NCBI GenBank assembly: GCA_051294375.1
Contig: CM119263.1
Location: forward strand, 6,048,932-6,112,931
DNA: 64,000 nt
Reading direction: 5' to 3'
Source of the DNA: Paraspadella gotoi
Lineage: Eukaryota; Animalia; Chaetognatha
The translations under genes and the position numbers were made by a program. Below are positions 15,775 through 42,319 of this stretch, piece by piece (the stretch's first letter is position 1; the number at the start of each line of letters is the position of its first letter). The notes beneath the pieces are model-generated. The model was not told where the DNA came from, ran no database searches, and saw only the letters and a program-made list of their open reading frames with translations.

Positions 15775-17172
15775 TTAGTATTCAATCGTTATCAGTAGCG
15801 CTGGTAAGAAAATGAATATCAAAAAAGAAAAGTTGGGCGTTTGTAAGACAGCGATATCGAGATTGGCGTCAAATTTTTTAAAGAGATTTCGAGGTTTACC
15901 AATCATAAAAAAAAAGTCTTTCTGGTGTTCAGGATTGTTTCTTATGTATTTGCAAACGCTAAGGCTACCAATCAAAGAATTTGCCAGGTGGTAGATAGGC
16001 TGAGATATTTTTAAATATTCCTCCTTGGAATTTTTTCCCTGTAATGTTTTAAACAAATGTTTGCCAAAAATATTTTCATTATAGTAAATCATCTTCTTTG
16101 AAAGTAGCTGTGAATATGATAATATGTAAAGCAAGTTACCTAAAACCACAATGAATATTTTCCCCAAAAAACTATGTTTCATGCATCTAATTTCTTTTAA
16201 AATATTAAACCAAAAACCGAGAAAAGGAATTAATATCAAACTGTAAATAAGAAGGCAATTTTCCCGTATGAAAATATATGTTAAAATTATAGATATAATT
16301 TTTGAGTATTTCGGTTTCTTGGATTCTGGTATGGAGAAGTTGCAAAATTTTAAAAAGTGCAACTCTCCTTCATTTAAAAGGTTTTCTGTCAATTCTTTGA
16401 AAAAGATAACATAAAAAATTCCTAAAAGATTTGTTATTGTCATAAATAAGATAATAAAAAAAAATTTTACAACTTTAAATCTTTTAATGAAGTAACAGTT
16501 AAATAAACCTAAGCTAAATACTAAAGAATGAATAAGACACCAGTTTACTAATAAACTTTGGAACCAACTCGCCCAAAATTGCGTATTTAAGAGCTTGTTT
16601 TCAATTACTTTGGGTACAATATGAGATACATTAAAGTCTCGCTTTCCTCTGAATATAAAAAAATTATCCTTGCTAAAAGTTTTTTTCTCTAAATAGACAT
16701 TCAAAAGATTAAGATTCTTTATTGAATAATACAGGTTACAATAAATAATAATTGCTACTACAAATAATGTGCTTAAAGCTATAAGTGATTTAAAAAAAAT
16801 ATTTTTCAAATAAAAAAGATTAACCCAATAACCAAGAGACAGTAAAATTTCACAAAGAAGTAAACTTAGCTGCATTCTAAATCCCAGACTTAACCTATAG
16901 TTACCTAGCTTCATATTGCTTACTCTGACGTTTGAACAGTTTTTTTGGTATGGTATATTGTATTGAAAAAATGAAACCCTTTTCCATTTTTCATTTATCA
17001 TGCCTTTTACTTTGAAACACGAGGATTCTTCAAACGATGGTATATTATTTATAATATGAATGGGCTTTAAAAAAAGTAACAACCGGGCGGATATATCATT
17101 TTGTAAATATTTCAGTCCCCATTTGTTGTAGCCATCTTTTGTAAAGATAAAGTTCAAGTGTTGTTCTACCAT
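15775..17172 (-). CDS. intronless 465-aa multi-pass membrane protein of unknown family
   Basis: 1.4-kb open frame in very AT-rich DNA with roughly 7-8 hydrophobic segments; no motif recognised. Confidence 0.6.
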   Translation of the reverse strand: MVEQHLNFIFTKDGYNKWGLKYLQNDISARLLLFLKPIHIINNIPSFEESSCFKVKGMINEKWKRVSFFQYNIPYQKNCSNVRVSNMKLGNYRLSLGFRMQLSLLLCEILLSLGYWVNLFYLKNIFFKSLIALSTLFVVAIIIYCNLYYSIKNLNLLNVYLEKKTFSKDNFFIFRGKRDFNVSHIVPKVIENKLLNTQFWASWFQSLLVNWCLIHSLVFSLGLFNCYFIKRFKVVKFFFIILFMTITNLLGIFYVIFFKELTENLLNEGELHFLKFCNFSIPESKKPKYSKIISIILTYIFIRENCLLIYSLILIPFLGFWFNILKEIRCMKHSFLGKIFIVVLGNLLYILSYSQLLSKKMIYYNENIFGKHLFKTLQGKNSKEEYLKISQPIYHLANSLIGSLSVCKYIRNNPEHQKDFFFMIGKPRNLFKKFDANLDIAVLQTPNFSFLIFIFLPALLITIEY

Positions 17173-18601
17173 TTTAGAAAAAGAGTACAGAATCAGAGGT
17201 TAAACTGTGCGAGATAATCATTTCTTTAATAGTTTTTTAGAATTTTGCTCGCACGTAAGATTCATAGAAAATCACTTAAATAAATTAAGAAAAAATATTC
17301 TCTTTAATTCGCACAAAGAAAATATTCTAAATAGTATTGTGGGAAATAAAAAGAAACAGACGTAGGAAAATTTATTGTCATATCAAAAACAAGAAATAAA
17401 AGTAGGGAAATTCCTAAGACTCCCTGAAGTACTCCAAGAACTTGGTCATTTTATTTGCAAAACTGAAGAAATACAATCTGTATTGGAAACGGAGGCTTCT
17501 CGAATATCTATCTGCGCATTTTGCCAAACTGAATGTCGATAAAACTATAGAAAACAATAGAAAATATTCCCGAATTCTCCAGCTGCAGATTTCAATGCGT
17601 TTTATAATGCGTTCCAAGATTTTGCAGGAACAGGTGATTTGAGTTTTTAAAGAGCTCCATTCCGGCCTAGCTCGTACACCCTACCTGGAATCCATAAATA
17701 GTTGTTAATCGAAACATCATTTAATCGGTAATCGTATACTGCCTGAAAAATTATGAAACAAATTATTCCCCAAGCATATCTCATTGGTTTCACCAGTCCA
17801 ACCCAAGACAGTGACCATTGTCTGTATCACCATCTGCGGAAAAGACTCAAAGTAAAACGTGGATGAGATTCATCTTCTTTATAAACGTAGTTTTCATTTC
17901 AATCACCCGTTGATGAACCTTTAAAAAAAATAAATATATCTATTGTATTGTGATATTTAGGCAAAAAATATCCGGCATGCGTAAAAGTATTTATTTATTT
18001 TTTTCTATGTAAAATTTCCTTCCGATGTCTGTTTCCCAAGGTCAAACCGTTAAAAAATTATAATGAATATAAGATGGCTATATCTAGTGAAAAATGGAGA
18101 ATGTCGCAAATATTTGCCTGGAACCAGGTACGAGGGTCATTAGGAGACTATTTAAAATCATCATATTATCATATTATTGGTATACAATACGGAAAATTAT
18201 TTTTTTCTCATTTAAATTATTTTTTACGGAATTTTATGGAACTAAAAATGTTAGATTAAAGATATTATTAAAATTGTACAATTTTTTTAGTATAAATTTT
18301 TAAAAAATGGCAAATTTATAAAATGAAGATGATTATTTTTTATTTTGTTAACTTTTTACGCTTATAAAAGTAGCCATAGCCGATGAAATTTAAATGCTAA
18401 TGTATACAGCGTTAAAATAATCTATCATGCCCATAGATTATGGTATTAAAATATTTTTTGTCAAAAATGCTTTCTTCTGAGGGTACTCGCCTAATTAAAA
18501 ATATTATATTACTATATAGAGCAAAAAATATTTTTTTAAAATCTTAAAATTTGTTGATGGATTCTGATAGAGCATAAAAAGTTAAACAAGAAATATAATT
18601 A

Positions 18602-18787
18602 CGGAGGCAAGTCATTCGCCTCCCAACCCAAAGGTCCGGGGTTCTAGCCCGGTGGCCGCCTAGCAGTTAAGAGGGACAGGGCGCTTAACCCGCCTGTAAC
18701 ATGGTATTACAGCCTGATCCGAAGCTCAGGGACTGCTTATATTGAACGGTTCTGTCATTAACACTTATCAATAATTACTGTCTCTTC
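18602..18787 (+). mobile_element. tRNA-head/twister element, subfamily 1 (5'-truncated, first of a tandem pair)
   Basis: Matches 19021-19207; twister at 18663-18736, with the T1 strand reading ACAGG instead of ACGGG. Confidence 0.8.
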
Positions 18788-19006
18788 ATTGGTGAGCCCG
18801 ACTTCCGAACACAACAGCAACAACAACACTTTCAGGCGACTTGCCTCAACCTAGAGATGCACTTTCCGCCAACAACACATCAGGCGATATGCCTCAACTT
18901 GGTGACGCACTTTCCACCAACAACAATTCACTGAAGAGATGCAACAGACTTCTCCCTACGGGAGGGGGGGATGTATGGTGGACTAAAATCCACCAACCGT
19001 TCATCA

Positions 19007-19079
19007 GCGGCCATTGGTGCCGGAGGCAAGTCATTCGCCTCCCAACCCAAAGGTCCGGGGTTCTAGCCCGGTGGCCGCC
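19007..19079 (+). ncRNA. tRNA-derived head (pseudo-tRNA, Pol III A/B boxes)
   Basis: 73 nt; acceptor stem GCGGCCA/TGGCCGC, A-box-like TGGTGCCGGAGG, T arm CCGGG-GTTCTAG-CCCGG; D and anticodon arms are poor. Confidence 0.75.
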
Positions 19080-19081
19080 TA

Positions 19082-19155
19082 GCAGTTAAGAGGGACGGGG
19101 CGCTTAACCCGCCTGTAACATGGTATTACAGCCTGATCCGAAGCTCAGGGACTGC
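19082..19155 (+). ncRNA. twister ribozyme, P5-type permutation (subfamily 1)
   Basis: GCAGUU-AAGAGG-GA-CGG-GGCGCU-U^AA-CCC-GC-CUGUAACA/UAUUACAG-CCUGA-UCCGAAGC-UCAGG-GACUGC; T1 CCG/CGG, T2 GC/GC; predicted cut 19105/19106. Confidence 0.8.
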
Positions 19156-19462
19156 TTATATTGAACGGTTCTGTCATTAACACTTATCAATAATTACTGT
19201 CTCTTCACCTTTTAATCAATAAATAAGCCATCTTCCCCCTGACTTCTTACTTGAAAAGTAGGATTAAGGCCTTTATCCTTTTTACAAAATGATTATATAT
19301 AACATATATAATCATTATATATATCATCATAATATATTGGTTGTACCAATTTCATATAAAGACATTGAAGTGACCGAGAGGAGAGAGGGTCGCTATGCCT
19401 CTCTGTGAGTGAGAATAGCCCCCACACCCAGTGAGTCGGGGAGATTTTTTTTGTCAGTTGCA

Positions 19463-19617
19463 TTGCTTTCCAGAACTACGGATCCGGCGGTAAGTTTTCT
19501 ACTGGTGGTTTAATCGGCCCGTCACTATTTTTGCAAGGTCTGTTCCGATCAGGGCTTGAAGCCATGACCATTGGTTGCAAAGATGAAGCGTTCGCCCAGT
19601 GCGCTATTACATCGCCG
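19463..19617 (-). mobile_element. tRNA-head/twister element, subfamily 4 (degenerate)
   Basis: Minus strand: A box TAGCGCACTGG (19596-19606), B-box-like GGCTTCAAGCCC (19552-19563), then UUGC-AAAAAUAGU-GA-CGG-GCCGAU-UAA-ACCAC..CCGGA-UCCGUAGU-UCUGG-AAAGCAA (19463-19536). Confidence 0.7.
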
Positions 19618-20214
19618 TTGCATGAGCCAGTCATATCCAACGGGTAGAAATATTACATCACTACAACATATTCAAACGTCAATACAACGAATTAACTTAA
19701 TACTTGCTAGTACAAATCAATTTAGTTGCAACAAGATAAAATAATTTAATTGCAGTTAAGAGATCCGTCACTGCTATGAGAAAATATTTTAAAAATTAAA
19801 CACCATAACTAGACTTTTCAAGCTTTTTTATTTTTGTGTCTAACTAATCTGCTTCATGTATCCCTGCCTATACTATATGTAATTATATATACTATGCATT
19901 TCATTCCTTACTATCAATCTATCATTCCTGAGTTTTAAATAACTTTTACCTTATCTATTTTCCTTTATTCAGTTTTAAATCTTATCTTAAATCTTGTCTG
20001 GAAGCTCATCCCATGTTAAATCTTAAATATTATCTTATCTTTTAAATCTTACCGTATCCTGCTTTTGTTCTTCAAGGTGAAGGTCAAAAGCGAAGGGGAC
20101 GTAGCCGAGACCAACGAGGAGGAAAAACGCAACGACCGCTCGACGCCGACAATCGGAAAAGAGCAGTTGAAAATCAGCCTGTCGGCGAATATAATATAGC
20201 TTAAGGGAGTGGTC

Positions 20215-20461
20215 TTTTCATACAATTGAAACATTCTTTGAAATATTTTCCACTTCATTGATAGGGAAGCCAGGTACTCTGGGAGTGAATAAACGAGACT
20301 GTGAAAGAGTCTTGATTGAAAGCTTGCAGGGACCTGCTATGTCATTATCTTGTAAGAGTGATGGAGGCCTTAAACCACCAAAGCCTGTCCAAAGTCAGGG
20401 GCAAGATAGCTTATTTATTAAATGAATGGATAATTTTTATATTGGTTGTACCAATTTCATA
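20215..20461 (+). repeat. ~245-bp dispersed repeat (copy at 45074-45310; fragments near 19210, 23270, 26395)
   Basis: TTCATACAATTGAAACATTCTT...AAAGTCAGGGGCAAGA.AGCTTATTTATTAAAT...TTGTACCAATTTCATA is shared. Confidence 0.8.
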
Positions 20462-21328: not shown

Positions 21329-21594
21329 AACAGACTTCTCCCTACGGGAGGGGGGATGTATGGTGGACTAAAATCCACCAACAGTTTCATCAGCGGCCAT
21401 TGGTGCCGGAGGCAAGTCATTCGCCTCCCAACCCAAAGGTCCGGGGTTCTAGCCCGGTGGCCGCCTAGCAGTTAAGAGGGACGGGCGGGCGCTTAACCCG
21501 CCTGTAACATGGTGTTACAGCCTGATCCGAAGCTCAGGGACTGATTATATTGAACGGTTCTGTTATTAACACTTATCAATAATTACTGTCTTTT
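21329..21594 (+). mobile_element. tRNA-head/twister element, subfamily 1
   Basis: Conserved upstream CAGACTTCTCCCTACGGGAG..GGTGGACTAAAATCCACC, tRNA-like head 21393-21465, twister 21468-21544 with perfect P3 CTGTAACA/TGTTACAG. Confidence 0.8.
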
Positions 21595-22400
21595 CAAAGG
21601 GTTAATTTTTCTTTCACCGATTGGAGTGAGCAGGTTTAGGGTTAAGGGGGGTTTAGGGGTGGTTTAGGGATAGGGTGATTAGGGTTAAAAGGGTTTAAAG
21701 TTTAAGGTAATTAGTAATAAATTTTTTAAAATTCTTTTTAAAAATAAATATTTTAAGTGATTTTTTTAAAAGACGCCAAAACCGGTCGGCGAAAGTAAAA
21801 TTTAGTCAAGCCAAAATTAATTTTGCTTCATTATCAACCCAAGATAATCAAAAACCTGCTCATCACTTATTTTGAACCTAGTAAAGAGCTAGTTAGTAAA
21901 CTTCCAACATCGAAATTACTTTAACTAATATCGGGCCTACTTTTCAGTAAATAATATACAGAAAATGCGTTGATAAAGAGAAACACTTAAATCCATTTTT
22001 GATGGGTACACGTTCCTATTTTCCCAACTTACTTTTGCCAAATTCTTGGCAGGATCTTACCTTTAGGTCGGAGCCTACGTCGAGAACGTTGAGCCAATGT
22101 TATCGGTCATGCAGAATTTAGATTAAATCTCCATTTGCACAGCAGAATGAATATACAGGTTTTATAGAGAATAAATAAATATCTTGTCATAATTCAAATA
22201 AATTGTATCTGTATTATTTAAAATTTTTAGATTAGTTTCTTTTTTTTATTAAGTTTATTTCTTGTTTTGATCTCGTTAATTTTACCTATTTTTCCTCAAA
22301 AGACTGGGTATCTTTTTAAAAAAGCCACTTTTAAACATAAATAATTCAAGTAATAAAGTTTAATCTGTTTGACAATAAAAACTTGTTGCATATGCATTAA

Positions 22401-23004
22401 GGCGTAGTGAACGTTACATACGAAAATTCTAAAAGTCAATTATGAATAACATACTATCAGTGAACATTAATTTGTAAAAAAAATTAATTTTTTGTTTTTT
22501 AATTTTCGCAGTAGGCTAATTTATATATAGTACTATCCTTATAAAATCGAAAAATTTCAAAATAGGCTTTTCTTAATTTTGATTGCAGATTTGAATTCCT
22601 CGTTAAAAGTTGATAGAAGAAAATATAAATCATTTTTAAAAATTCCTTCATTAAGTTGGTTAAAAATTAAAAAAACTATATTTAATATATAAAAAGTTAA
22701 TTTGCAGCTTAAAATATAGCTTTTTCTAATTTTTGACCCACTTAATGAAGGAATTTTTCAAAAAGAGTTATATTTCTTTTTATCAACTTTTTATGACGAA
22801 TCCAAATCTGCAAAAAAATTTTGGAAAAAACTGTTTTGAAATTTTAACATTTATTGGTTTAGTACTAGTATAAATCTGGCCTACTGCAATTGTAAAATTT
22901 ATTATAATTTTTTTTATTACATAAATGTTCATTAGTATAATATGTTGTTCGTTCCTCACTTTTAGAATTTTAATTAAAGTTAAATTTAAAAATTTTACTA
23001 CGCC
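22401..23004. mobile_element. palindromic MITE with TTAA flanks (Kolobok-like)
   Basis: TTAA|GGCGTAGT ... ACTACGCC|TTAA; the internal halves are imperfect reverse complements. Confidence 0.7.
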
Positions 23005-24237
23005 TTAATATGCATAAGCAAGTTTGTTTTTTTGTTTTTTTTTGTTGGTTTTTTTTTTAATTATAAGTTGTCAATAAATAGATTTTATAGAAAGCTTAGG
23101 TCGTCCTTTTATATAGGCGTTTTATTTCGAATTCAACAAGTTGATTCAGTACATACAGGAGCATCAAAACAAAGCTAAGTCTAAAGACAAAACAAAGTTA
23201 AAGATTGCCCGAAAAGATACAGTGGCTGATATGAACCAAGGTTCTCGGGTCGAGAAGAAAGAAGAATAAAAGTCAGGGGCAAGATACCTTATTTATTAAA
23301 TGGATGGATAATTTTTATATTGATTGTACCAATTCAATAATTGAAAGAAATAAATAGGAGGTTGATTTAAGATTAAAAAATAAGCTCGTGATAACAATAT
23401 CATGTTTGCGGAATGAAAAGTTCTACAATTGTAGATTAAGATTTACGAGAAGCGAAAATTATGATCGGGAAGAGGATGACTCTAATCGTCGCGACGGATC
23501 TGTGGATCAATCTGTCCATCCCTCAAAAACGGAAATACCAAGTGTTGTTGTTGTTGTTGTTTTTTTGTTGTTGTTTTGTTGTTGTTGTATGTTGTTGTTT
23601 TTGTTGTTGTTGTGGTTTTGTTTTTGTTGTGGTTTTTTGTTGTTGTTGTGTTTTTTGTTGTTTGTGGTTGTTGTTGTTGTTTTTGTTGTTGTTTTTTTTA
23701 TTTTTGTTGTTTTTGTTGTTGTTGTTGTGACCATTGTCGTAGGCGTTGTCTCATTTGACGATAATTAGTTTCCGTTATCAAATTTGACGCCTAATTGACA
23801 CTCGTCGCCACCTGAGATTTTAAACGTTTCCGCTGAATTTATGGCGGATTAATCGCGTTTATTATGTCGCATTTGCCTGCAGTTGCGTGAGCGTAATTGG
23901 GGAAGAGAGTAAGAAGATTTTAACAATGCGTGATGAGGTCAACGAGATAAGAGGGAATTCTGAGCCCGTCAATATCACGGATTCCTCTGTCGCTTTCATC
24001 GTCAATATATGTATATTCACTATATTGTAGTAACTTATACTAAAAAGTTTAGTTCATTGGAAGAAGAAAAGAATTATGACATGAAGTCGTGAACGATGGA
24101 TTATATAAGCTAGAGCCGATATATGAAATTTGTTCAATATTATATTGATAAAATTGACTTTTTCTTATGCGTTTTGTTTATTCCTTCTTTGGTAAATAGT
24201 GTCTTGTTAGCGAATCCTAAATTTGCCTCCCGTATAG

Positions 24238-24470
24238 CTTGGTAAAATTCAGATCGTCCCTTTGGCTTGGACAGCTAAATACTCGTTCACCAATCGTGTC
24301 ATTCGGGTTCAATCCCCTCACGGACTCGCTGGTTAAAGTGTGATGGCGTCGGCATAAATACGCCAGTGACATGGCATGGTCACTGCAGGTCCAAATCCCT
24401 GACCGCCATCTTTCGGAATGTGTATAACACCCCGGCCATCACACATGTCCCCCGTTGCCAATAGTCTAGT
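24238..24470 (+). mobile_element. tRNA-head/twister element, subfamily 3
   Basis: A-box-like TGGCTTGGACAG, B box GGTTCAATCCC (24306-24316); twister 24331-24404 GGUU-AAAGUGU-GA-UGG-CGUCGGCA-UAA-AUAC-GC-CAGUGAC/GUCACUG-CAGG-UCCAAAUC-CCUG-ACC; tail CCCGTTGCCA shared with subfamily 2. Confidence 0.75.
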
Positions 24471-27386
24471 ACTTTCGTCTCTCACGCGAATAGACCGTGG
24501 TTCCATTCCCCGCCAAGTATGAAGAACTTCATTTGTTTTTAAAATTATATTTCATCGATAAGAATTATTTTTTTCCATCTCTACTTTTACACAATTTTTC
24601 TATGGCATCGATTATAACGTGCATAGTATGCTTATTTATATTTATTATCATTAGTTGAATGAACGCGGTTAGGCGAGAAATTATTTTCTCACTCTTGTTA
24701 AAACAATAAACTGGCAAATTTACGTGCCCCCAAAAAAATAGGCTCTGACTAAAGCAAAACTCCCCAAAAAAGATAACTCTTGACATTTTGTCACATTCCT
24801 GCGAAGTTCACATTCTTTGAAGTTATTCTCCGAAAATCTAATTACGCCTTCGTCCGGATAACGTGGGGGAAAAAAACTTTTTTTTTCATTCATTAGGTTT
24901 TAAAAACTTTTCTCCTGCCTGAATTGGCTGCATTAAAACATAGCATCTTGCTTCTCATTTTGTCCAGATGATGCTTTTCGTATTATTTTCTTTGGTGTCA
25001 TTTTCCCGTAAGTAACCCTTATTTTTTTATCAATTTATAAAGTAATTAAATAAACAAAAACAAAGATGTTTTCTCCGTGAAGATTGTGTTGTTGTTCGTT
25101 CGTTTATTTCGGCAGTTCTCGTCCTTTTGTCGGCGTCTCGAGTTTCACTAAGGTTTTACTAACGTTTTCTTAATTAATGTGATAAAGTTTAATAATTAAA
25201 ATAAATTAAATAAAGTTAAGTAAAATTAAAACAGTTTGAATCACCGAGAATATTTGACGAAAAAATGAAAAAATGAAATTTTAAATCTTCAGCGGTTCTG
25301 GGTCGAATCATATGCGACTTTCAGCGACCGGTCCGGCCTGGCTCGAACCCGGCTCCGTTCCGACGCGGCAAATTTTCTCGTCGACAACCACATTGACACC
25401 TGCGAATACAGATGCACCGAGGAAGCGGCGCGGCTTCCCTGTAAGGCCATTGCCCTCGCCGAAGACGGAATGCTGGATGCTTCCCTACGATTACGATGAA
25501 TACTTTGCGGCCAATAGGATTAGATCCTCGATGGGATTACATTTTTTACACTCCCGAATGCTACGGTTGGTTGGTTTTTGTCATAAAACAATCTATATGA
25601 AAACATATCACTGTTGGTTTAAGACATTTCAAAAATAATTTGTCAAAGCAAGTTTTGAAAGCGAAAACTGGGTTTAATACTTATTTTAATTCTTGTTTTT
25701 TTTTTCCCCCATATGAGAAAAAAAGATTTTCGTCGGTCAGATTTAGCCTTAAGAAATTTTAGTTTCATTTATATGCAATTGATAAAGTGTAAAATAAAAT
25801 TGTACAGTGCTTGTTTCCTTGTTTTACTAAATATATAAACTAAGTAAATATCATATTCTTCGATTATCACGCAGACGACGAGACGCGACTTCCGGTAGAG
25901 GGAAAAAAATGCCGCCGCTCTCAAGATTGGCCTCGCGAGACTATCCCGCCAAGAACGTCCACGGGAGATGACGAGCGACGCTTCGGCCCGCGCGATTACA
26001 CGTTGTATCCCTGGGAGACGAGGAGTTCGAATCGACCGACCAATCGCCCGACGGTTCGAAAGACTAAAATCCCGACGAATCCATCTCGTCTCTTTAATTA
26101 AAGTTAAATTTAAAAATTTTACTACGCCTTAATATGCATAAGCAAGTTTGTTTTTTTGTTTTTTTGTTGGTTTTTTTTTTAATTATAAGTTTGTCAATAA
26201 ATAGATTTTATAGAAAGCTTAGGTCGTCCTTTTATATAGGCGTTTTATTTCGAATTCAACAAGGTTGATTCAGTACATACAGGAGCATCAAAACAAAGCT
26301 AAGTCTAAAGACAAAACAAAGTTAAAGATTGCCCGAAAAGATACAGTGGCTGATATGAACCAAGGTTCTCGGGTCGAGAAGAAAGAGAATAAAAGTCAGG
26401 GGCAAGATACCTTATTTATTAAATGGATGGATAATTTTTATATTGATTGTACCAATTCAATAATTGAAAGAAATAAATAGGAGGTGGATTAAAGATTAAA
26501 AAATAAGCTCGTGATAACAATATCATGTTTGCGGGAATGAAAAGTTCTACAATTGTAGATTAAGATTTACGAGAAGCGAAAATTATGATCGGGAAGAGGA
26601 TGACTCTAATCGTCGCGACGGATCTGTGGATCAATCTGTCCATCCCTCAAAACGGAAATACCAAGTGTTGTTGTTGTTGTTGTTTTTTGTTGTTGTTGTT
26701 TTTGTTGTTGTTGTATTTGTTGTTGTTTTTGTTGTTGTTGTGGTTTTTTGTTTTTGTGTGGTTTTTTGTTGTTGTTGTGGTTTTTGTTGTTGTGTTTTGT
26801 GGTTGTTGTTGTTTTTTGTTGTTGTTTTTTTTATTTTTGTTGTTTTTGTTGTTGTTGTTGTGACCATTGTCGTAGGCGTTGTCTCATTTGACGATAATTA
26901 GTTTCCGTTATCAAATTTGACGCCTAATTGACACTCGTCGCCACCTGAGATTTTAAACGTTTCCGCTGAATTTATGGCGGATTAATCGCGTTTATTATGT
27001 CGCATTGCTGAGTTGCGTGAGCGTAATTGGGGAAGAGAGTAAGAAGATTTTAACAATGCGTGATGAGGTCAACGAGATAAGAGGGGAATTCTGAGCCCGT
27101 CAATATCACGGATTCCTCTGTCGCTTTCATCGTCAATATATGTATATTCACTATGATGGTAGTAACTTAACAAAAAGTCTTAGTTTGACAAACTAGCTTC
27201 ATTTGGAAGAAGAAAATAATTATTGACATGAAGGTCGTGGAACGATGGATTATATAAGCTAGAGCCGATATATGAAATTTGTTCAATATTATATTGATAA
27301 AATTGACTTTTTCTTATGCGTTTTGTTTATTCCTTCTTTGGTAAATAGTGTCTTGTAGCGAATCCTAAATTTGCCTCCCGTATAGC

Positions 27387-27620
27387 TTGGTAAAATTCAG
27401 ATCGTCCCTTTGGCTTGGACAGCTAAATACTCGTTCACCAATCGTGTCATTCGGGTTCAATCCCCTCACGGACTCGCTGGTTAAAGTGTGATGGCGTCGG
27501 CATAAATACGCCAGTGACATGGCATGGTCACTGCAGGTCCAAATCCCTGACCGCCATCTTTCGGAATATGTATAACACCCCGGCCATCACACATGTCCCC
27601 CCGTTGCCATAGTCTAGTAC
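27387..27620 (+). mobile_element. tRNA-head/twister element, subfamily 3 (duplicate copy)
   Basis: As 24238-24470; twister at 27479-27552. Confidence 0.75.
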
Positions 27621-28210
27621 TTTCGTCTCTCACGCGAATAGACCGTGGTTCCATTCCCCGCCAAGTATGAAGAACTTCATTTGTTTTAAAATTATATTTC
27701 ATCGATAAGAATTATTTTTTTCCATCTCTACTTTTACACAATTTTCTATGGCATCGATTATAACGTGCATAGTATGCTTATTATATTTATTATCATTAGT
27801 TGAATGAACGCGGTTAGGCGAGAAATTATTTTCTCACTCTTGTTAAAACAATAAACTGGCAAATTTACGTGCCCCCAAAAAATAGGCTCTGACTACAAGC
27901 AAAACTCCCCAAAAAAGATAACTCTTGACATTTTGTCACATTCCTGCGAAGTTCACATTCTTTGAAGTTATTCTCCGAAAATCTAATTACGCCTTCGTCC
28001 GGATAACGTGGGGGAAAAAAACTTTTTTTTCATTCATAGGTTTTAAAACTTTTCTCCTGCCTGAATTGGCTTGCATTAAAAACATAGCATCTTGCTTCTC
28101 ATTTTGTCCAGATGATGCTTTTCGTATTATTTTCTTTGGTGTCATTTTCCCGTAAGTAACCCTTATTTTTTTATCAATTTATAAAGTAATTAAATAAACA
28201 AAAAACAAAG

Positions 28211-31200
28211 ATGTTTCTCCGTGAAGATTGTGTTGTTGTTCGTTCGTTTATTTCGGGCAGTTCTCGTCCTTTTGTCGGCGTCTCGAGTTTCACTAAGGTT
28301 TTACTAACGTTTTCTTAATTAATGTGATAAAGTTTAATAATTAAAAATAAATTAAATAAAGTTAAGTAAAATTAAACAGTTTGAATCACCGAGAATATTT
28401 GACGAAAAATGAAAAATGAAATTTTAAATCTTCAGCGGTTCTGGGTCGAATCATATGCGACTTTCAGCGACGCGGTCCGGCCTGGCTCGAACCCGGCTCC
28501 GTTCCCGACGCGGCAAATTTTCTCGTCGACAACCACATTGACACCTGCGAATACAGATGCACCGAGGAAGCGGCGCGGCTTCCCTGTAAGGCCATTGCCC
28601 TCGCCGAAGACGGATGCTGGATGCTTCCCTACGATTACGATGAATACTTTGCGGCCAATAGGATTAGATCCTCGAGGGATTACATTTTTTACACTCCCGA
28701 ATGCTACGGTTGGTTGGTTTTTGTCATAAAACAATCTATATGAAAACATATCACTGTTGGTTTAAGACATTTCAAAAATAATTTGTCAAAGCAAGTTTTG
28801 AAAGCGAAAACTGGGTTTAATACTTATTTTAATTCTTGTTTTTTTTTTCCCCCATATGAGAAAAAAAGATTTTCGTCGGTCAGATTTAGCCTTAAGAAAT
28901 TTTAGTTTCATTTATATGCAATTGATAAAGTGTAAAATAAAATTGTACAGTGCTTGTTTCCTTGTTTTACTAAATATATAAACTAAGTAAATATCATATT
29001 CTTCGATTATCACGCAGACGACGAGACGCGACTTCCGGTAGAGGGAAAAAAAATGCCGCCGCTCTCAAGATTGGCTCGCGAGACTATCCCGCCAAGAACG
29101 TCCACGGGAGATGACGAGCGACGCTTCGGCCCGCGCGATTACACGTTGTATCCCTGGGAGACGAGGAGTTCGAATCGACCGACCAATCGCCCGACGGTTC
29201 GAAAGACTAAAATCCCGACGAATCGCCCGACGAAACGCCCGACGAATCGCCCGACGAATCTCCCGACGAATCGCCCGACGAATCGTCCGACATCTCGAAG
29301 TCCGATCGATCGACTTCGGCCGAGCTCGAGACCGTCAACCGAGACTGAACCGACAAGGGGAAACCTTAGGCTCGGAACTACGATATTCTGGACTTGGGAC
29401 TCGAAGAGAGGCAGATGGATCGAGGGATCGACTCGTGAGAACAGAAACTCAGATGACGATCGAGAAAGAAAATGGACGGAGAGAAGAGTGGATTCTTCCT
29501 CGAAGCCTTTCGAGATCTCGAGAACGTCGAATCCAACTACATCCGGGAGTTTTCGGCCCACGACGAGAAGATGGAACGAAAGACTTCAAAGAGAGAGGAT
29601 AGAGAATGAAAGAAGATGGGAAAATAGACGATCGGAAATTAACAGGGAAACCATCGAACGAAGGCGGACGAGCACCTTTCATTCCAGACGTGATTGGGGT
29701 GATTTTCGGGATAGTTTTCCGACTGAGAGAAGTCCAAGCAAAGGTTCGATTGACGGTTCTTTGGATTCGGAGAGAAGCAGAGTCAGTGAGAGTACAATAC
29801 CGACAATCCGAACCTTTTCCGTAAATGCAGGATACAGAACTTCGCCAACTGTTTCCCATGGCGACAGATCAGAGAGAAGATTTAATTCTCAATCTAGTCG
29901 CTCGGACGTGACCCGAACAACGACGTTTAGACCGAACGAGAGAACGAGACCAAGGGAAACAAACAGATACCCGGAGAGTCTTCAAACTTGGAGAAATGTC
30001 TATCAACGAAGGAATTGGTGGAACAAAGACGGCAACAGATGGGACGGAAACACGAGCCCAACTGGTCGAGGAGTTGGAAGAACCCGATCAACTGTTGCAA
30101 GCACATCTAGCGATAGATCTAATGAGAGAACTATAACAACTAAAAATTCGTGGAAATTATGGCAAAGTAGATTTCCGGAGAGTCTTTCGCGAACGGATCG
30201 AACCCAAGTTATCACTTCTCGATCCGGATCACCAGATAGAAACAGATGGATAGAGAGCCCTTCTCCAAGCATAGTTCCGACCATTTTTAGGAGTAAACGT
30301 CCAATCAACAGATGGACTGACCACTTTGTTAGCGGGTTTCCAAAAATTGAACCACCATCGCGCGCTCCTTTGATTGACAGAGATTTGAACAATAAAAGAG
30401 AAGAAGCAAATAACTTTGATGAAAGATTAAAGATTTTGTACAGTGATCCTTACGGGCAAGTTTACACTAGGGAACCTTATTATCCGTGGTGGCCCACGCG
30501 ATCGAGAACAACCTCTTCAATATTCGAATCTTCAACACCTCCGCCAACGACGACAACGACAACAACAAGCTCAACGAGGACGCCAACAACGACAATATCA
30601 AGCTCTAACAATACGCCAACAACAACATCAAGTTCAAAAACGACGCCAACAACAACAACATCAAGCTCAACAACGACGCCAATAACCACAACATCAAGCT
30701 CAACAACGACGCCAACAACCAGACCATCACGGCAGGTTATCAGTTCATCAGCGACTACCACAACATCTCTCCCGAGGTCTACTTCCAGGATATTCAGATC
30801 TACGACCGATCCGTATAATTGGTGGAAAAAACCTCCCACTAAAAATCCTTGGTTGTGGTATCTAACTAGAACAAAAATAAATCCAACGAGGCCACCCGCA
30901 ACCGAGAGTATTTTAACTAGAAATGTTTACAGAACAAATTACGTTACGGGCGAGAAAAGACTTGATGAATCGGATGTTACTGAAACAGATATTAAATCTG
31001 TAATACCAACATCGCCAGTTTTCGGTTCTTCAGTGATATCAACTTCTAAATTCCCCGAGTCAAGCACAAAGATAACGACCTTAAATTCCCAATTGTCTCA
31101 GTTGACGAGCCCTCGCATTCCAATTCGCAGAAATGAGGCTGATGGCATTTTTGTCACTAGGAATCCCTATTTCATTTCGATCAAAAATAATGTCCGACAA

Positions 31201-33003
31201 TCTTCGCATAAAACGTTTGGTAGTAATCGAAATAACACAATTAAAAGTTCTAAATTGATGAGTTATAATCAACAAAATGTTGGCGGTAGAAACGTTCATC
31301 TCACGCATCATCAGTCTCACCATACAATTCTTAAAGTGACTCGATTAGAAAACCGTTTGAGGGAATATGAGTCTCAAATTAGGCGGTTACAACAACAAGA
31401 AGCAGAGAGAGAAAAATTGTTGTTAATTCAAAGAGAAAATGAGAAGAAAACGGAAGAAAGAGTATTAAAGATAGAGCAAGAGAGAAAAGAATTAGAAAAT
31501 CGACGCATTTTGGCGGAAAAGGAAAGGCTGAACAAGGAAAAGTTAAATCTGAACGCTTGGAAACAAAAGATTCTCGTGGAGCAGAGGAAATTGCAAGAGG
31601 AGAGAAGACAAATCGACGACGCTGACCGAAGGAGAAGACAACACGAGGGAAGGCTCCAAGAGAAGGAACGATTGCTCCAAGAGAAGCAGGAGAGGCTGGA
31701 ATCTGAAAAGAAGATCGTGAAAACGGAAAAGGCGGAACAGGAACGCGATCAGGAAAGGATCGAGTCGGAGGAGCGTCAAGCGAGAGAACAAAAGGAGGAA
31801 TTACAGAGAGAGAGGAAGCAAATCGAAGGGGAGAAGCGGAGATTGGCGAAATTGAAAAAGAAAAACGTGGAAGCTTTGGAAAAGAAGAAAATGGAATTGT
31901 CGACGACGCCGTCTCCCTCGACGACGAAGGCCGACCACAAAACCGATCAGGACGAAGAGATGGAGAAACTGTTGGAGAAATTGAGTGGAGAAAACGAGGA
32001 GTTGGAAAAGAAGAAAATGGAACAATTGGATCAATTAGCTCGATTGGAAGAGGAAAACGTTCGAGCCCAGAGATTGGTCAAAGATTTAAAGAGGGAAAAG
32101 GGCAGCTTGAGAAAGAAATTAAAACAATTACAAGAAGCGGAAAAAGATGAAGAGGAAAAAAATGTTTACGTCCCGGAGGCGGCAGTAAATTCTGCGCTGA
32201 TTGAAACGACGAAAAAGATTAAAACGACGACGACGACGTCGACAAGTACGGCGTCAACCACAACAACGGCTTCAACGACATCGGAAATAGAAAAGGGCGA
32301 ACCGATGATTGTAGGTGAGTTCTGACTTTTCTTTCTTTGTCGCATGATTACATTTTACGTTTCTTGTGATTCGTCTTATTTCTCCTTTACTATCACTCAG
32401 AGAGATCTGAACCAGATCCCTTGCGTGCCCTTTACGTCGCCATCGCCATCTTTGCCTTCATCATTCTGATGCTTATCTTGCTCGCCTGTTGCCTGTCGAG
32501 ATGGAGGTGAGTGACATCGATCGTTTTCCAACTCGACTTTTATCCCAAAAAGTTCAAAACGTGAGGTCGAATGGGAAATTCCTTTTTGGTCGAAAACTAA
32601 TTAGGTTTTAAAAGGAACGACGAGCTGGTAGTTTAAAAGTTTAAAATGTGAAATATGTAGTAGATATTTCAACACAGACTCACGCTTGTCATAACACATA
32701 ATTGAACTTTTTCGTTTGTTAATTTTGTTACGCAGAAAACGTAGAGACCAAATGCTTCTTTTGGCCGGAGACTCGGAAGCCTTCGGCGGTGTTTCTAAGC
32801 AGGCTTCTATCGCTTCTGGTAAATATCGGAACGTCGAGATACTCTGGATGTTAGCTAATGGAAAAGGGGATAGTAAAGAGACATAGGATAAGTAATAGCG
32901 ACATTTTTAATAAGCGAGAAACGAAACTAATTATTACAAAAATTGCTGGTTTTTTATAGAGAGAAATGAACGGTAACCTGAGGGCAAAAAGAGCGTTGGT
33001 AGA

Positions 33004-33093
<90 letters not shown>

Positions 33094-36000
33094 TCGTCCA
33101 CAATAGTTAAATATGGATATGCTACTGCCGGAAGCAATAATTAACGATTTTTAGATTATGTTTTTTTTAGGGAGGAGGGACGCCGGTAAGGGAGATAAAA
33201 AATTCTTATTACCTAACAACAACGACTGAATCGTTAAATTACTTAATTTACTTAATTACCAAACCCCCCCCCCATTTCTGTTACTGAACTTAATTTTAAC
33301 CCTAAACTCAGAACCTCGATCCCTCACCTTAAACTTTTCCCCCCCCAAAATAGCGGACATGAAGGGAAGAGCACCGGTGTTGGTGAGCTACGACGCGGCC
33401 ATGCCGGAGTCTCTGCCGAGAAAGACCCCAATGCCTCTTCCGCCGCCGCCGCCGCCGATGCCTCGAACCGCGCAGCAGTCGCCGCTTCTGGTCAACGCCG
33501 GAAATCCTGACTATGCCTCCGTCGGAAAATTGAAAAAGGTCGGTTCTATCTTACTATTTATTTCTTCTCTTTCTTTCGGTTCCTGTCTCGCTCGAGTTAT
33601 TTCCTTTATTAGATTCTTTTCGGTCTGACCGTCTGTGTACGTATATATTATTTTAAAAAATAATATTAATAGTTTAAAAATTTTCTTTCTTCTTTTTTTC
33701 TTTCTTTCTTTCTTTATTTCTTTTTTTCTTTCTTTCTTTCTATCTTTCTTATTCTCCCCACTTGCTCATATTTCCTCTACATATTTCCTCTACGTTTCCT
33801 CTAACTCATTGTCATTCCCATATTTTAAATACATCTTTTTAGTTCATCTGTATTAACTTTTCTCACTAATTCCAGGACGAGGTGTCAGACGACTTTGACC
33901 TCGACGTGAGTCTCGCCTGCGAAGCTCAGAATTTCTCTAAAAACACGAGAAAGACGAAAAAGTCGAGCGCCGTTTCTGTGTCGAAGACGGAAACGTCCGT
34001 GAAGAAGGAGACGAACAGCACGAACGTGAACGGTGATTATTTATTAATTAATCATCGTTAATTATTTAAATGGGGTCGATAAGATCGACAAATATTTTCG
34101 ATTCCCTTTTGGTTTTAGTTTCTCAAGTCTCCCATTCGGAGATTAAAAAGACCAGCAACGTTGCGCGAAACTTTTCTTCGACCGTTGTCGATAACCGGAC
34201 GGACGTCAAGAATGTTAATTCGACTTCGGTTAAAAACAACGTGGTTAAGAAACACTCTTCCTCTGCCATTGAGTCTAAAATCAGCGACGTTAAAAATATC
34301 AGTAGCTCAACGTCGATTCGAAACGACAGTCAAGTTGTTAATAATTCCGTTTATTCCTCGATCAGCAAGATTAGCAATGTCGACAATTCTTCTTCAATTT
34401 CCGTTGTTAACAACAGCCTCGATGTCAAAAGTCAATCTTTGAAAAGTAAGTTTAAAGATTTCAAATTGAAAATACAGCAAGAGAACAATGAAATTTAGTA
34501 GTATTACTCTTAGAAAATATATAGTTTTTTCAAAAAAATCAAGTTCGTATGTCAAGTATAATTATATCCGTTTGACTGTTATGGACCAAATGGGCTCACA
34601 TTAAAATTTAAATATCTCTTTCACAGCTGAATCCGTGAGTAACTCCTCCGTAAGGAATTCTACAATGAAAAGCGTCAATAAGACCGTCGATATACAACAG
34701 AGCGATTCAAGTGCTAGTCACGTGACCTCTGAAAGTACGATAGGTCGTATTTCGGTCAAGGATATCATCGAAGCTTCCAAGGTACGCTCATGGGCTAAAT
34801 TTTTTAAATAATCGGTACGTTATCATGCACTGCTTTTGATAATAGGAATAATATTTGAATATGAATATGAAAACTAAATTATTATCCAAAGTATTAAAAT
34901 AGTTTTCAATAAGTAAATAAGCCTACTATGAAAACCGTATCAAAAGATATGAGAAAGATATAAACTGCTACAATATGTAAATGAGATTAAAGATGAACCA
35001 CAAGTTACTGCGTTCCACTACATCAAATACAATTTCAATCTCTTCCGACAGACTGAATTGGATTCAACAGTATTAATCGCGGAAGAAATAACCGAGGCGT
35101 CGCTCAACGAAGAAGTCATCCAGTCTGAATCTCGAGCGGCGACCTCGAATTCTGTTCTCTTTAACGTCACTACAAATGTAAACAACAACTCGTATGATAA
35201 CTCCACAACGGTTTCTTCCTGTCTCTATGACAACGCGGCGGAAGTCTTGTCTGAGCAAGAAAATGTTGCCATGGTAACCTCTGGTTCACTCTATGACAAT
35301 GCCGTATTGTCCAATGGGTTTAGCGGTGAAATGACGTCTTGTCCGTCGATTAAAATTTCTCCTTGCCCCGACGACAATGCCATGTCCGTGTCATCCAACG
35401 TCCACGACAACGTGGAGGAGAAAGCGAAAAGCCGCGACCGTCACGAGGCTTCGCTTCTGACCGAGGTGGCGTCCGCCGACGCTTACGATCAACGTCGATC
35501 GAAGGCGAAATCTTTTGACGAACTGAGAGATTACGACAACGTTCGTTCGGATGTGGCGATCGATTTCGTCTCCGCCAACCAGATACTCGACCGCGCCCAT
35601 TTCGGCGTAACCGAAGACGCGATGGATGGCGCCACCGACGGGGACGTCTTCTACGACTCCCTAGACTCCAGCGACGATGTTGACGATGAATACAACGAGT
35701 TTGAAGACTCCACGCCGAGATTTCCGACAAATCTGAACTCTTTTGACCTTCCCTGTTTGGATTCTTCATCGTCTCCATCTTTCAGAACCCAATCATTGGG
35801 CTTCTCTGCGATTAGGACCCAATCTTACGGTCCTCCCGCTTTCGAGACCCAGTCTTTGAGGACCTCGGCGTCCATTTTGAATCCTGATGATGGAAGGGAA
35901 ATCGAGATCTTCGATCTTGACGCGCGAATCGACGGGAAGCACTTGGGAGAGTACGATTATCTGGACGAGGACGATTACCGCGTTGACGAACGTCAATCGT

Positions 36001-36712
36001 TTTCGCCGCAGCGAAGGAACTTACCCGCGGGATCGAATGGAAACGTGGCTAACGGAGTCGCTTCTCGGTATGAGGATTTTAACCAGAATCGGCATTCGGA
36101 CACAAGGACCCAAAAGGCTTCTTCCAAGAAGCAGAAAGTAACTCGAAATTCGCGCGGAACTGAGTTTTTACGTTCCGAGTCTCGTCAGCGTCGAGACGCG
36201 CACTCCAAACGGTCTCGCCACGGGTTTGACGGCAACGTCGAAGAAGAGAGGTTATACATACAATAAATTATACAAATTAATATTTTTTTGTCTTTCTTAA
36301 TTTTTTGAGGTAACTATTTTGCTTTATCTTTATTTTCCATATTCCTTTCAGCGATAACATCGCATGGCGCCAAGTGGGCACCACTCCCGACGCTGAACGC
36401 CGGTGCCTTCCACCCTCTGCGCAAGTCGCCTTGTCACGCTCTTTCGGCGACGTGACAGATTCTCACCGTGGCGTCAAAATTGTGGGCGGTCATCGTGGTG
36501 ACGCCGGAACCGATCGTGGATTCCGCAAGGCCCCCTATAGCGCGACATTTCTTAATTCCGCCTCTGGTGACGATCTCGACTCCGAGAGAAAGTGGGTGGG
36601 GCAAACTTCCGCTCGACGATCGGGAGGCGCCGTCCGAGGCGAAACGATAGACGGAAGAAGTCTAGATTCTGGGGTCGGTTCAAACATCTTGACGAACGAT
36701 AGTTTAAATTGA
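28211..36712 (+). CDS. large (~2,050-aa) single-pass membrane protein: R/S/T/P-rich region, coiled coil, TM helix, Tyr-motif-rich tail
   Basis: Phase-consistent GT-AG exons: 28211-28297 (uncertain), 28436-28712, 29018-32314, 32401-32506 (ALYVAIAIFAFIILMLILLACC then RWRKRR), 32736-32818, 33354-33538, 33876-34032, 34119-34445, 34627-34781, 35052-36250, 36352-36712. Confidence 0.8.
33010..33090. repeat. (GA)n microsatellite
   Basis: Pure GA run; similar runs near 45697-45805, 52337-52395, 59505-59575 and 60256-60322. Confidence 0.95.
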
Positions 36713-39690: not shown

Positions 39691-41972
39691 ATGTCTCTGT
39701 GGACATTGAGGGTGCGTGTCCTCGGTCATTTCTACGCCTTTAAAGACGCGGCCAGCGAATTGGCGAAACAAATCTACGAGGAAACCAAGAATGTCTGGAG
39801 CTTCGACCACGGGCCGGACTGCTCTAAAAAATCCGAACAACTGAGCAACGGCGAACTAAGAAAAACAAAAGGACAGTTGATTCGACTCAGCGGAACAGTG
39901 TGCGGGATCGAGTTTTGCTACGCCGCCGAAACAGGTTGAAAAAAGGAATCGTAACGATCGTAAACTGTTAACGTATGGATAATAATAATAATAATAATAA
40001 TAATAATGTTAATGATAATTATTTCAGTTCATGCGATAATTTAATTAAATAAAATAAATAAATAAAATTAAATGGGCCACAATCAACTTACCAATTTCAT
40101 AACCCCCGTCCAGCCTTCGTCAGCCCTATCCTACTCAACATCGGCGTCCCAGTTTACCTCATGACCCTCGTCTGGTGTCTCTCTCCGATCCTTGGCTTCT
40201 TCCTCGGGCCTCTCCTCGGATCCCTAAGCGACAACTGCCGCCTCCGATTCGGTCGTCGACGCCCCTTCATCCTCCTCTACTCCTTGGGCATCTTGGCCGG
40301 TCTCATCCTCGTGCCGCGCGGGTCGGGGCTGGGCGTGGCCCTCGGCGACGTCGAATCCTCGTCAATTCTTCGTCGACCCTCGTCAAAGGCGGAGATCCTC
40401 CACGCCTCAGTCTCAAAGGCTCACCTCCGCTGGAACGACACGTTCGTCGACGAGACGTTCGACGGCAACGCCTCCTCCGCAACTCTTAAGGAAGCGCCGC
40501 CGCTCTCCTCTCGACCATGGGGCACAGCCCTCACAATCTTGGGAGTGATGTTGCTGGATTTTTGCTGCGACTGCTGTCAATCCCCCAGCCGCACTTACTT
40601 GCTGGACATGACTGCGCCGGAGGAACATCAAGAAGGTCTCTCTACTTTCACCATCATGGCCGGCGTCGGCGGGGCCATTGGATACGTTATGGGCGGCGTC
40701 GATTGGGAGGCCGCCGGCGTCTTTTCTCGCGGCGTCGCCGCCGACGAAGCCATCGGCGGCCACGTTTTCGGCTTGGTCCTCTTCGCTTATCTGGTTTGTC
40801 TGACGGTCACGGTAACGGCGTTCGAAGAAGTTCCCTTAGAGGATGTCGTCGTCTTTGAAGAGCACATTGAGCTCAAAGAAGAAATGAAGCAAACTCGGCT
40901 CTTGAAGGACATCCTGGAGGAAGAGTCAAGCTGTTCGTCCCCGAGTGAGACGACGCCGGAAGACGAAGGAGCAAAGGCGCAAGAATTCGGCGTCTTTGGA
41001 GAGCGCAATGCCGGCGCCGTTTCGGTTGACGTTTTCCAAGGAGAAATTCGTCGTCCTTCGACGATCGTAATCGATCCTGGACAGACGAGTGGACTCTCTC
41101 TCGACCGACAGACCCGAGCGTCGGAATCCTTGAATCCGAAATACGATTCCACTTCGGCGTTCAACGACGAAAATCGCGACGGCGCCGAAACGAATCACGA
41201 ATCTACGCCGCAAACGAAAAACGTCACACACGCTGGCGTCACTCGTCGCCCCTCACTCGCCTCTTCTCTCTCGGCCCCGATCCAAGATATAACCCTTAAG
41301 ACTTACCTGCTCAGCATCTTCCACCTCCCCACCTCTCTCCGCGTTCTCTGTCTCACCAACCTCCTCAGTTGGATGTCGCTCGTCAGCTTCAGTCTTTACT
41401 TCACCGACTTTGTCGGTCAGTCTGTCTTCGGCGGCGATCCCAGCGCCCCGCGGCACAGTCCTGCCCGCGACGCCTACGAATCCGGCGTCCGGACGGGCTC
41501 CTTGGCGATGGCGCTCTACTCGATCTCCTGCTCGATCTTCTCGTCCCGACTGGAAGGTCTCATAGAACGATTCGGCGCCCGACGCCTCTACGTTCGCGGC
41601 CAGCTCATCTACGCGGCGGGAGCCTTGCTCATGGCGCTTTTCCCTTACCGCGCGTCGGTGTTTCTTCTCTCGCCAACGGCCGGAGTCATGTACGGAACTC
41701 TTTTTACGATTCCCTACATCCTCCTGGCCAATTATCACTCCCGCGGGGTTTTCGAGGTAAAGAAAGGGGCAGGGCCGGCGCCCAAGCGCGGGCTGGGGAC
41801 CGACGTAGCGCTCGTGTCGTCTATGGTCTTCGTCGCTCAGTTTCTTCTCTCCGCATTTATGGGCGTCGCCGTCCACGTGACCGGAAGTACGAGGACGGTG
41901 ATGGGTATGGCGTCGATCTGCGCCGCGGCAGGATCCTTCGCCGCCACCAAGGTTTTGTACCTAGACTTGTAA
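39691..41972 (+). CDS. SLC45-family (MATP / proton-associated sugar transporter-like) MFS transporter
   Basis: Exons 39691-39934 and 40114-41972 join to GIEFCYAAETAFVSPILL; also GSLSDNCRLRFGRRRPFIL, LLDFCCDCCQSPSRTYLLD, LYFTDFVGQSVFGGDP, RGLGTDVA. Confidence 0.93.
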
Positions 41973-42319
41973 ATCTATGCCATCTTACCATCGCAGGAAA
42001 TGGACCAGTAGAGGGATCTGATAGACCAAATGGTTTGCCAACTTCTTTGTCCTGGTAACAGTTATTATCAGAAAAAAAATATTTGGGTGCGTCCGAAAAG
42101 ACTAGTCGATACATTTCGATTTCATTCAAATTTTAACTCGTCATAATTCCTAATTGTAATTATAATTATTACTTTAGCGATTCATATTAATAGTTTCCAT
42201 AACACTTACACATCATTTATAAAACCATATTTATCCCTAGTAGTGAAAACAAACCAAATTAAAATTTATATAAGAAGTTAATTCTGCAGTTTTAGGAGTT
42301 GACAATAAATCTTTAAAGG

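Follow-up and report, generated by a model that had tools for sequence, protein, structure and literature searches.

Introduction

Which kind of mobile element would place a tRNA-like unit directly in front of a twister ribozyme? The question is raised by a locus of the chaetognath Paraspadella gotoi, found in a stretch of 64,000 nucleotides of contig CM119263.1 (hereafter the window, to which all positions refer), and which a first-pass annotation had read as a tRNA-headed repeat of a SINE/RTE-related non-LTR class. The locus departs from published rules, according to which LTR retrozymes are plant elements with a hammerhead, whereas animal retrozymes are said, in the accessible parts of the sources, to lack LTR, PBS and PPT (PMC7761336, PMC7229834, 10.64898/2026.07.22.740005, PMC4918200, PMC5680766, PMC6765202). 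Four families of the window, A to D, are short non-coding LTR retrotransposons (TRIMs), in which the LTR carries a tRNA-like unit and then a P5-type twister fold, and which, on balance, probably spread as retrozymes.

Element boundaries and LTR organization

The tRNA-like unit at 19007 had been taken as the head of the element. However, the repeat was found to begin 35 nt further upstream, at 18972, where the 3′ LTR of family A opens, and the element start formerly placed at 18942 falls within the family A internal region (Table 1). The PBS of family A shows one mismatch, and that of family B two, to tRNA-Trp, the reference being that of a wasp and not the host's own; in family B, the PBS stands 2 nt past the 5′ LTR and 11/13 of its bases are as in the tRNA-Trp PBS of Kojima Fig. 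S2. Shortly after the PBS, A and B also share a second motif, CGAACAC (18790-18812, 58849-58872), which may lengthen the pairing to the primer tRNA. The family B LTR pair aligns with 253 matches, 1 substitution and 15 gap columns. A 4-bp TSD accompanies the TG..TA/CA ends at 3/3 testable loci (B, C and D), the ends of C and D having been set by eye, which leaves some freedom in their TSDs. The clipped 5′ LTR of family A adjoins an AT-rich high-copy repeat (18450-18601) that elsewhere continues with other sequence.

Table 1. Features of the window, with cleavage sites and promoter assignment as predicted
Feature	Position	Strand	Remarks
Family A 5′ LTR, first 49 nt missing	18602-18788	+	186/187 identical to 3′ LTR over the shared part; private T1 change at 18678
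Family A PBS	18790-18802	+	12/13 bases as in the tRNA-Trp PBS of Gypsy-32_NVi
Family A internal region, 183 bp	18789-18971	+	no ORF of at least 120 aa
Family A PPT	18960-18971	+	adjoins 3′ LTR
Family A 3′ LTR, 236 bp, TG..CA	18972-19207	+	opens with hairpin 18977-18994
tRNA-like unit, predicted Pol III promoter	19007-19079	+	inside 3′ LTR; box A 19015-19026 imperfect, box B 19059-19069
P5-type twister with extra P3 hairpin	19082-19155	+	predicted cut 19105/19106
Further family A LTR	21357-21596	+	PPT upstream; 5′ part deleted, remnant from ~21275; predicted cut 21494/21495
Near-duplicate assembly block of the further family A LTR	1-250
Family B full element, 760 bp, TG..TA, TSD GAAT	58586-59345	+	predicted cuts 58740/58741, 59237/59238
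Family B 5′ LTR, 261 bp	58586-58846	+
Family B PBS	58849	+
Family B internal region, 237 bp		+
Family B PPT	59072-59080	+
Family B 3′ LTR	59084-59345	+
Second family B element	57069-57800	+	near-duplicate assembly block, ends at gap
Family C solo LTR, 258 bp, TG..TA, TSD GTCT	27354-27611	+	box A/B; predicted twister cut 27503/27504
Near-duplicate of family C solo LTR	24205-24463
Family D solo LTR, 300 bp, TG..CA, TSD ATGT	19366-19665	−	predicted twister cut after 19512; box A-like 19596-19606, deviant box B 19552-19563
Family E unit, 239 bp, 7-nt direct repeat at both ends	20216-20461	+	P5-type twister without P3; predicted cut 20371/20372
Further family E copy	45074-45310	+
Family E fragments	23269-23334, 26392-26457, 19333-19356		5′-clipped, common 3′ end
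Decayed family E copy	~19218-19299	−
Transporter ORF, MFS type	40062-41972	+	intron-free, GC-rich
Transporter ORF, SLC7 amino-acid permease	42317-43891	+	intron-free, GC-rich
Long ORFs without Pfam match	28987-32325, 34953-36266	+
Long ORF without Pfam match	15775-17199	−

The ends of family A were also evaluated in public contigs matched to 18450-19250, of which four sequencing runs provided 12162, 2922, 1155 and 0 records (the last being run X10). In three runs, the contigs part from the element ahead of 18972-18974 and past 18788 and 19207-19208, and run on in unrelated flanks. Among the best-supported breakpoints listed for run X1, 35 and 142 loose ends lie before 18973 and 18974, respectively, 45 behind 18788, and 53 and 25 behind 19207 and 19208 (agreement 0.43-0.44); runs X5 and X9 have theirs at the same places, and no pile of loose ends before 19007 was seen among the best-supported breakpoints listed for the three runs. 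Such heterogeneous flank breaks at the LTR ends indicate that family A is dispersed and that its element ends are the LTR ends. Additionally, the summed depth, which is not a copy number, is far higher over the family A LTRs than over the right flank. Among the joints listed, none falls at a predicted cut, although contigs of a repeat would hardly reveal one. An assembly artefact was rejected, given that the family A element is present in sequencing runs of three studies.

Recurrence in four subfamilies had been claimed for the tRNA-twister order, and this order was indeed kept, since LTRs A to D all consist of a 5′ part, tRNA-like boxes, the twister and a tail of ~100-150 nt. However, several of the copies belong to near-duplicate blocks (1-627 and 21345-21989; 22969-26081 and 26093-29224; 56304-57799 and 57849-59312), which differ mainly by small indels and are likely assembly duplicates or haplotypes, so that there are fewer independent loci than had been listed. 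A tandem satellite was likewise discarded, because the repeats of family B are LTR pairs in duplicated blocks.

A tRNA-derived SINE starts at its tRNA head, closes with a simple-repeat tail and is flanked by a longer TSD of variable length. None of this agrees with ends at 18972-18974 and 19207, TG..CA/TA termini, a 4-bp TSD and the lack of a tail, and a tRNA-derived SINE was therefore rejected. As can be inferred from the fold, a P5-type twister could not persist in a SINE either, because after cleavage the copied piece would be left without the promoter and without half of the ribozyme. A SINE-like non-LTR element with a tRNA head and a twister of RTE origin is thus hardly credible: it would explain a tRNA-like unit upstream of a twister, and RTE elements do have twisters marking their 5′ ends (PMC8501958, PMC7761336, in their available text), but the start 35 nt ahead of that unit is joined by PBS, PPT and LTR pairs in contradicting this class. 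Of the first interpretation, the twister fold behind a tRNA-like unit that is probably a Pol III promoter survives, as does its assignment to a diversified family of retroelements that is not known as such; the tRNA-headed class does not.

The twister fold

A 73-nt unit followed after 2 nt by a twister had been proposed, and it was borne out at 19007-19079 and 19082-19155, where the P5 strand starts 2 nt past the unit and the fold closes at 19155. The parts follow one another as GA CGG, a 6-nt P1, UAA with the predicted cut, a 2-bp P2, T2, the P3 hairpin, P4 and the loop UCCGAAGC; the positions of GA, UAA (cut at 19105/19106), T1 and T2 are those originally given, and the P4, P2 and T1 variants reported with them occur in the sequence. 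A strict descriptor, requiring P2, T1, T2, P4 and P5, was applied to both strands of the window and identified 10 sites, each of them within one of five repeat families (A to E), while 40 local dinucleotide shuffles yielded a mean of 0.475 sites per window and a maximum of 3, a control that is somewhat favourable because the descriptor was composed after the sequences had been seen.

When one copy per family was compared across the five families, 54/55 core cells were found to pair, a value reached by the true pairing alone among 120 permutations, although the same pairs had also served to find the sites. Changes on both sides of the helices were observed in T1, T2, P2 and P4 across families A to E; T2, for instance, is GC/GC in A and B versus AC/GT in D and E. 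The U^AA cut site and the GA general-base strand are present in 5/5 families, in agreement with the invariant core bases that had been described. The closing P5 stem, which the descriptor demands, has 4-9 bp at 10/10 sites and 5 bp in A and B. In addition, a covariance model built from B and C only recovered all 4 family A copies (E 1e-4 to 0.02) and matched family E weakly (E 1.4), whereas family D was not found; among the 13 matches that the model gave at E<=5, 2 count as noise.

The twister consensus match is thus upheld by the descriptor but not by Rfam, since a search of the window at the gathering score returned no matches. The Twister-P5 model (RF02684), proposed earlier as a check, gave at E<=10 a sole match at 20357-20399, with 25.8 bits against a cut-off of 37.6; this site belongs to family E and had been missed by the first-pass annotation, while families A to D were not detected. 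We consider that the extra P3 hairpin probably accounts for the failure of the model on A to D. The twister was recovered by MFE folding in 0/5 families, which is expected of a double pseudoknot, and in all five families the twister is no more stable than its shuffles. In ViennaRNA ensembles, which leave out the pseudoknot energy, 5.1-12.3 kcal/mol must be paid to impose the nested twister helices. In the public contigs, no variant of at least 10% was found in the core (19094-19112, 19137-19144) among the best-supported rows listed; those that are common, at 19125, 19075 and 19078, either preserve the pairing or extend it, a weak sign given that most positions are invariant. The predicted cut lies at a similar LTR offset in four divergent LTRs (134, 155, 150 and 154).

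The elements could also be ordinary Helenus TRIMs in which the twister, acquired once from another retroelement, is an inactive or irrelevant passenger. The short P1 (6-9 nt with 1-2 possible pairs in A to E), the P2 of only two pairs in A and D (and in E), the single T2 mismatch of family C, the Rfam miss and the fact that most Helenus elements in the accessible published record carry no ribozyme would all fit this explanation. According to the available sections of a survey of natural twisters, imperfections of P1 and P2 are tolerated, P1 is reported to be dispensable and ~94% of the tested candidates cleaved, while T2 mismatches reduce cleavage (PMC11662667). On the other hand, a passenger agrees poorly with the compensatory changes that T1, T2, P2 and P4 show amid LTRs that have otherwise diverged (177 matches in 277 columns between B and C, and 151 in 272 between A and B), changes which argue for selection on the twister fold and leave the passenger explanation with very little probability. 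Judged from sequence, the twister fold of families A to E is regarded as real, and self-cleavage is predicted from it.

The tRNA-like unit as a putative promoter

The tRNA likeness that had been claimed for the 73-nt unit is only partly sustained. The unit is closed by a long stem (MFE -38.1 kcal/mol, z -3.4, with 0/200 shuffles as good) and has a box-B-like motif, GGTTCTAGCC, at 19059, but in family A it folds as a three-way junction instead of a cloverleaf, and ARAGORN reported 0 tRNAs in the window. The tRNA-like units ("heads") of B, C and D fold no better than shuffles. As for the boxes, B and C carry TGGCT and GGTTC, whereas A combines GGTTC with TGGTG at box A, and D combines TAGCG..TGG with GCTTC at box B. 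Motifs resembling box B are found in all four LTRs, at offsets 88-104 in the case of A, C and D. On the sense strand, neither the full elements of A and B nor the LTRs of C and D contain a T4 run, an absence that is not significant, as 19-51% of shuffles likewise lack one. The tRNA-like unit is probably a Pol III promoter.

A short hairpin stands at the start of LTRs A, B and C, upstream of box A (in B and C at 58589-58611 and ~27357-27376), and its loop holds a shared CTAAA/TTAAA motif.

Cleavage and circles might also arise from a Pol II or read-through transcript, the tRNA-like unit then serving in structure or processing. Whatever the transcript, a monomer would be released from it by the two ribozymes; besides, the boxes of A and D are degenerate, and the family A unit is strongly folded. 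However, it is the box-B-like motifs that recur in A to D and not the cloverleaf, which is the pattern of a kept promoter, and this origin of the transcript is decidedly improbable.

Proposed mode of amplification

In the favoured retrozyme route, Pol III would transcribe the element from the tRNA-like unit of the 5′ LTR, and cutting by both twisters would release an RNA of exact unit length, 419 nt in family A or 497 nt in family B, with 5′-OH and cyclic-phosphate ends. RtcB, which circularises animal retrozyme monomers in vitro (PMC7229834, accessible part), would ligate this monomer into a circle containing PBS, PPT, promoter and both ribozyme halves. Priming by tRNA-Trp would take place ~105 nt downstream of the cut, and copying round the circle would rebuild both LTRs, the promoter and both ribozyme halves, with no terminal repeat on the RNA being needed. 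Reverse transcription would be provided by a Gypsy element, the second strand would be PPT-primed, and insertion would depend on Gypsy integrase; no autonomous partner was seen in the window. In the portions of the literature available, plant LTR retrozymes have 4-bp TSDs, PBS, PPT, a Gypsy link and circular RNAs (PMC4918200, PMC7761336), and animal Helenus elements have 4-bp TSDs and a Gypsy-like PBS (PMC10886601).

The reason to invoke a circle lies in the position of the ribozymes, given that a P5-type twister keeps part of its core upstream of the cut. If both LTR copies were cut, the RNA would lack a terminal repeat and ordinary strand transfer would be impossible, as we infer from the fold and the way in which LTR elements replicate. 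In a SINE-like route the promoter would be lost and a linear RNA would have no repeat, and circularisation would solve both problems. Compared with shuffles, the predicted circles of A and B show somewhat better folding (z -2.4 and -2.5), but 52-61% of their bases are paired, which is below the more than 70% reported for retrozyme RNAs.

An unlikely, if serious, alternative is a linear genome, in which the 3′ twister forms the RNA end and the 5′ copy mostly escapes cleavage. In this case, a repeat of ~100 nt, spanning the tRNA-like unit together with the ribozyme's 5′ half, would be available for strand transfer, as in Cassandra-type TRIMs, whose RNA is linear, terminally redundant and made by Pol III. 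Such a genome would require no ligase, and the twister stands where many published Helenus LTRs, inspected by eye, have a T-rich stretch past box B. However, both twister copies have the same sequence and the 5′ copy folds first, and the folding asymmetry does not run in the needed direction, since forcing the family A twister costs 6.5-8.6 kcal/mol in the 5′ context and 9.1-12.3 kcal/mol in the 3′ context, by a crude measure.

Family E and neighbouring genes

The fifth twister-bearing family differs from the LTR elements, as no tRNA-like part, PBS or PPT was seen in it, and it forms a long hairpin (z -4.8). Family E is likely a separate, non-LTR element type; its appearance is that of a twister-bearing non-LTR retrozyme, either circle-derived or of Penelope type, and it may be of the animal Sm-alpha-like kind.

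The two adjacent transporter ORFs stand in an AT-rich, repeat-rich genome. For the SLC7 transporter, the best named relatives, from nemerteans and molluscs, show 44% identity, and other relatives 63-65%.

Wider occurrence and implications

A twister in an LTR element, or an animal LTR retrozyme, was not found in the literature searched, a body of text outside of which lie most subscription journals, Repbase and Dfam. Metagenome contigs with the shared PBS motif comprised 44 loci, 0/44 with a box B or twister upstream, and the one such locus with a repeat was a repetitive protein gene. In viral contigs, the P3 motif of B and C had 0 matches, and the combination of box B with the 5′ half of the twister was present at 44 loci, 0/44 with a twister core.

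An observation of another kind concerns the published gall-wasp consensus sequences Helenus-2_SyJa-LTR and Helenus-2_SyUm-LTR (PMC10886601 Data S1, seen in part), in which an apparent type III hammerhead lies right after box B; judged by eye, it has the core, three stems and complementary loops, and the elements have a Trp-type PBS. This apparent wasp Helenus hammerhead suggests that the design occurs repeatedly and has so far escaped notice in repeat libraries.

It could well be, though the idea is more tentative than the retrozyme reading of A to D themselves, that animals have their own LTR retrozymes, Pol III-driven and tRNA-primed, in which a promoter-ribozyme cassette gives rise to a circular RNA genome and the ribozyme is interchangeable. 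The basis for its generality is four families of a single genome, together with the gall-wasp Helenus-2 case, and that for interchangeability is the twister of the window elements and the apparent, overlooked hammerhead of Helenus-2. If true, nature would have in these elements its own version of the engineered Pol III/twister/RtcB circular-RNA design, and animals would have in them a source of small RNA circles that bear a primer. The twister would gain a eukaryotic job besides trimming the 5′ ends of non-LTR elements, and a possible answer would be at hand to how a Pol III-promoted LTR element sets its RNA ends, a matter left open for Helenus.

Comparison with known systems

Helenus (TRIMp3; Kojima 2024, PMC10886601), as far as its accessible text describes it, resembles A to D in being a short non-coding TRIM with a tRNA-like sequence per LTR. 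It further shares with the window elements a PBS, a PPT, 4-bp TSDs in animals and several families per genome, and a tRNA-Trp PBS is also present in gall-wasp Helenus-2. The two LTRs, PBS and PPT of Helenus are found in A and B, whereas C and D are solo LTRs; regarding its box pattern (TRGCY..YGG and GGTTC), B and C carry TGGCT and GGTTC, while A and D deviate in one box each. Pol III transcription is likewise a prediction for Helenus. The difference lies in the ribozyme, as none is named in the main text of that paper, where ordinary LTR replication is assumed, and no twister was visible by eye in the animal consensus LTRs, most of which end soon after box B.

Plant LTR retrozymes (Cervera et al. 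2016, PMC4918200, available sections) are similar to A to D in being non-autonomous and in carrying a ribozyme in both LTRs, here a predicted fold. PBS, PPT, 4-bp TSD, Gypsy-type signals and unit-length circular RNA, the last predicted for the window elements, are also held in common. However, the plant elements have a type III hammerhead, a tRNA-Met PBS and a length of 1-1.5 kb, whereas those of the window have a twister, a tRNA-Trp-like PBS, 0.65-0.76 kb, an animal host and a tRNA-like LTR promoter. Of 7 matches in the window to a hammerhead-core motif, 0/7 lie within these elements.

Animal non-LTR retrozymes and schistosome Sm-alpha, as presented in the accessible parts of PMC7229834 and PMC6765202, are also small ribozyme-processed repeats of animals, and Sm-alpha likewise pairs a tRNA/Pol III promoter with a ribozyme (PMC6765202). 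They differ in their type I hammerhead and tandem arrays, and in having no LTR, PBS or PPT. As for the ribozyme itself, Rfam RF02684 and, in the available text, the T-variants of Perere-3 (PMC8501958) share with A to E the UAA cut, GA, T1, T2, P2, P4 and an opening at P5; A to D differ from RF02684, whose model misses them, by the extra P3 hairpin, and the twisters of Perere-3 lie at the 5′ end of an autonomous non-LTR element, unlike those in the LTRs of A to D. On sequence grounds, families A to D join the layout of Helenus to that of plant LTR retrozymes, with a twister as the ribozyme.
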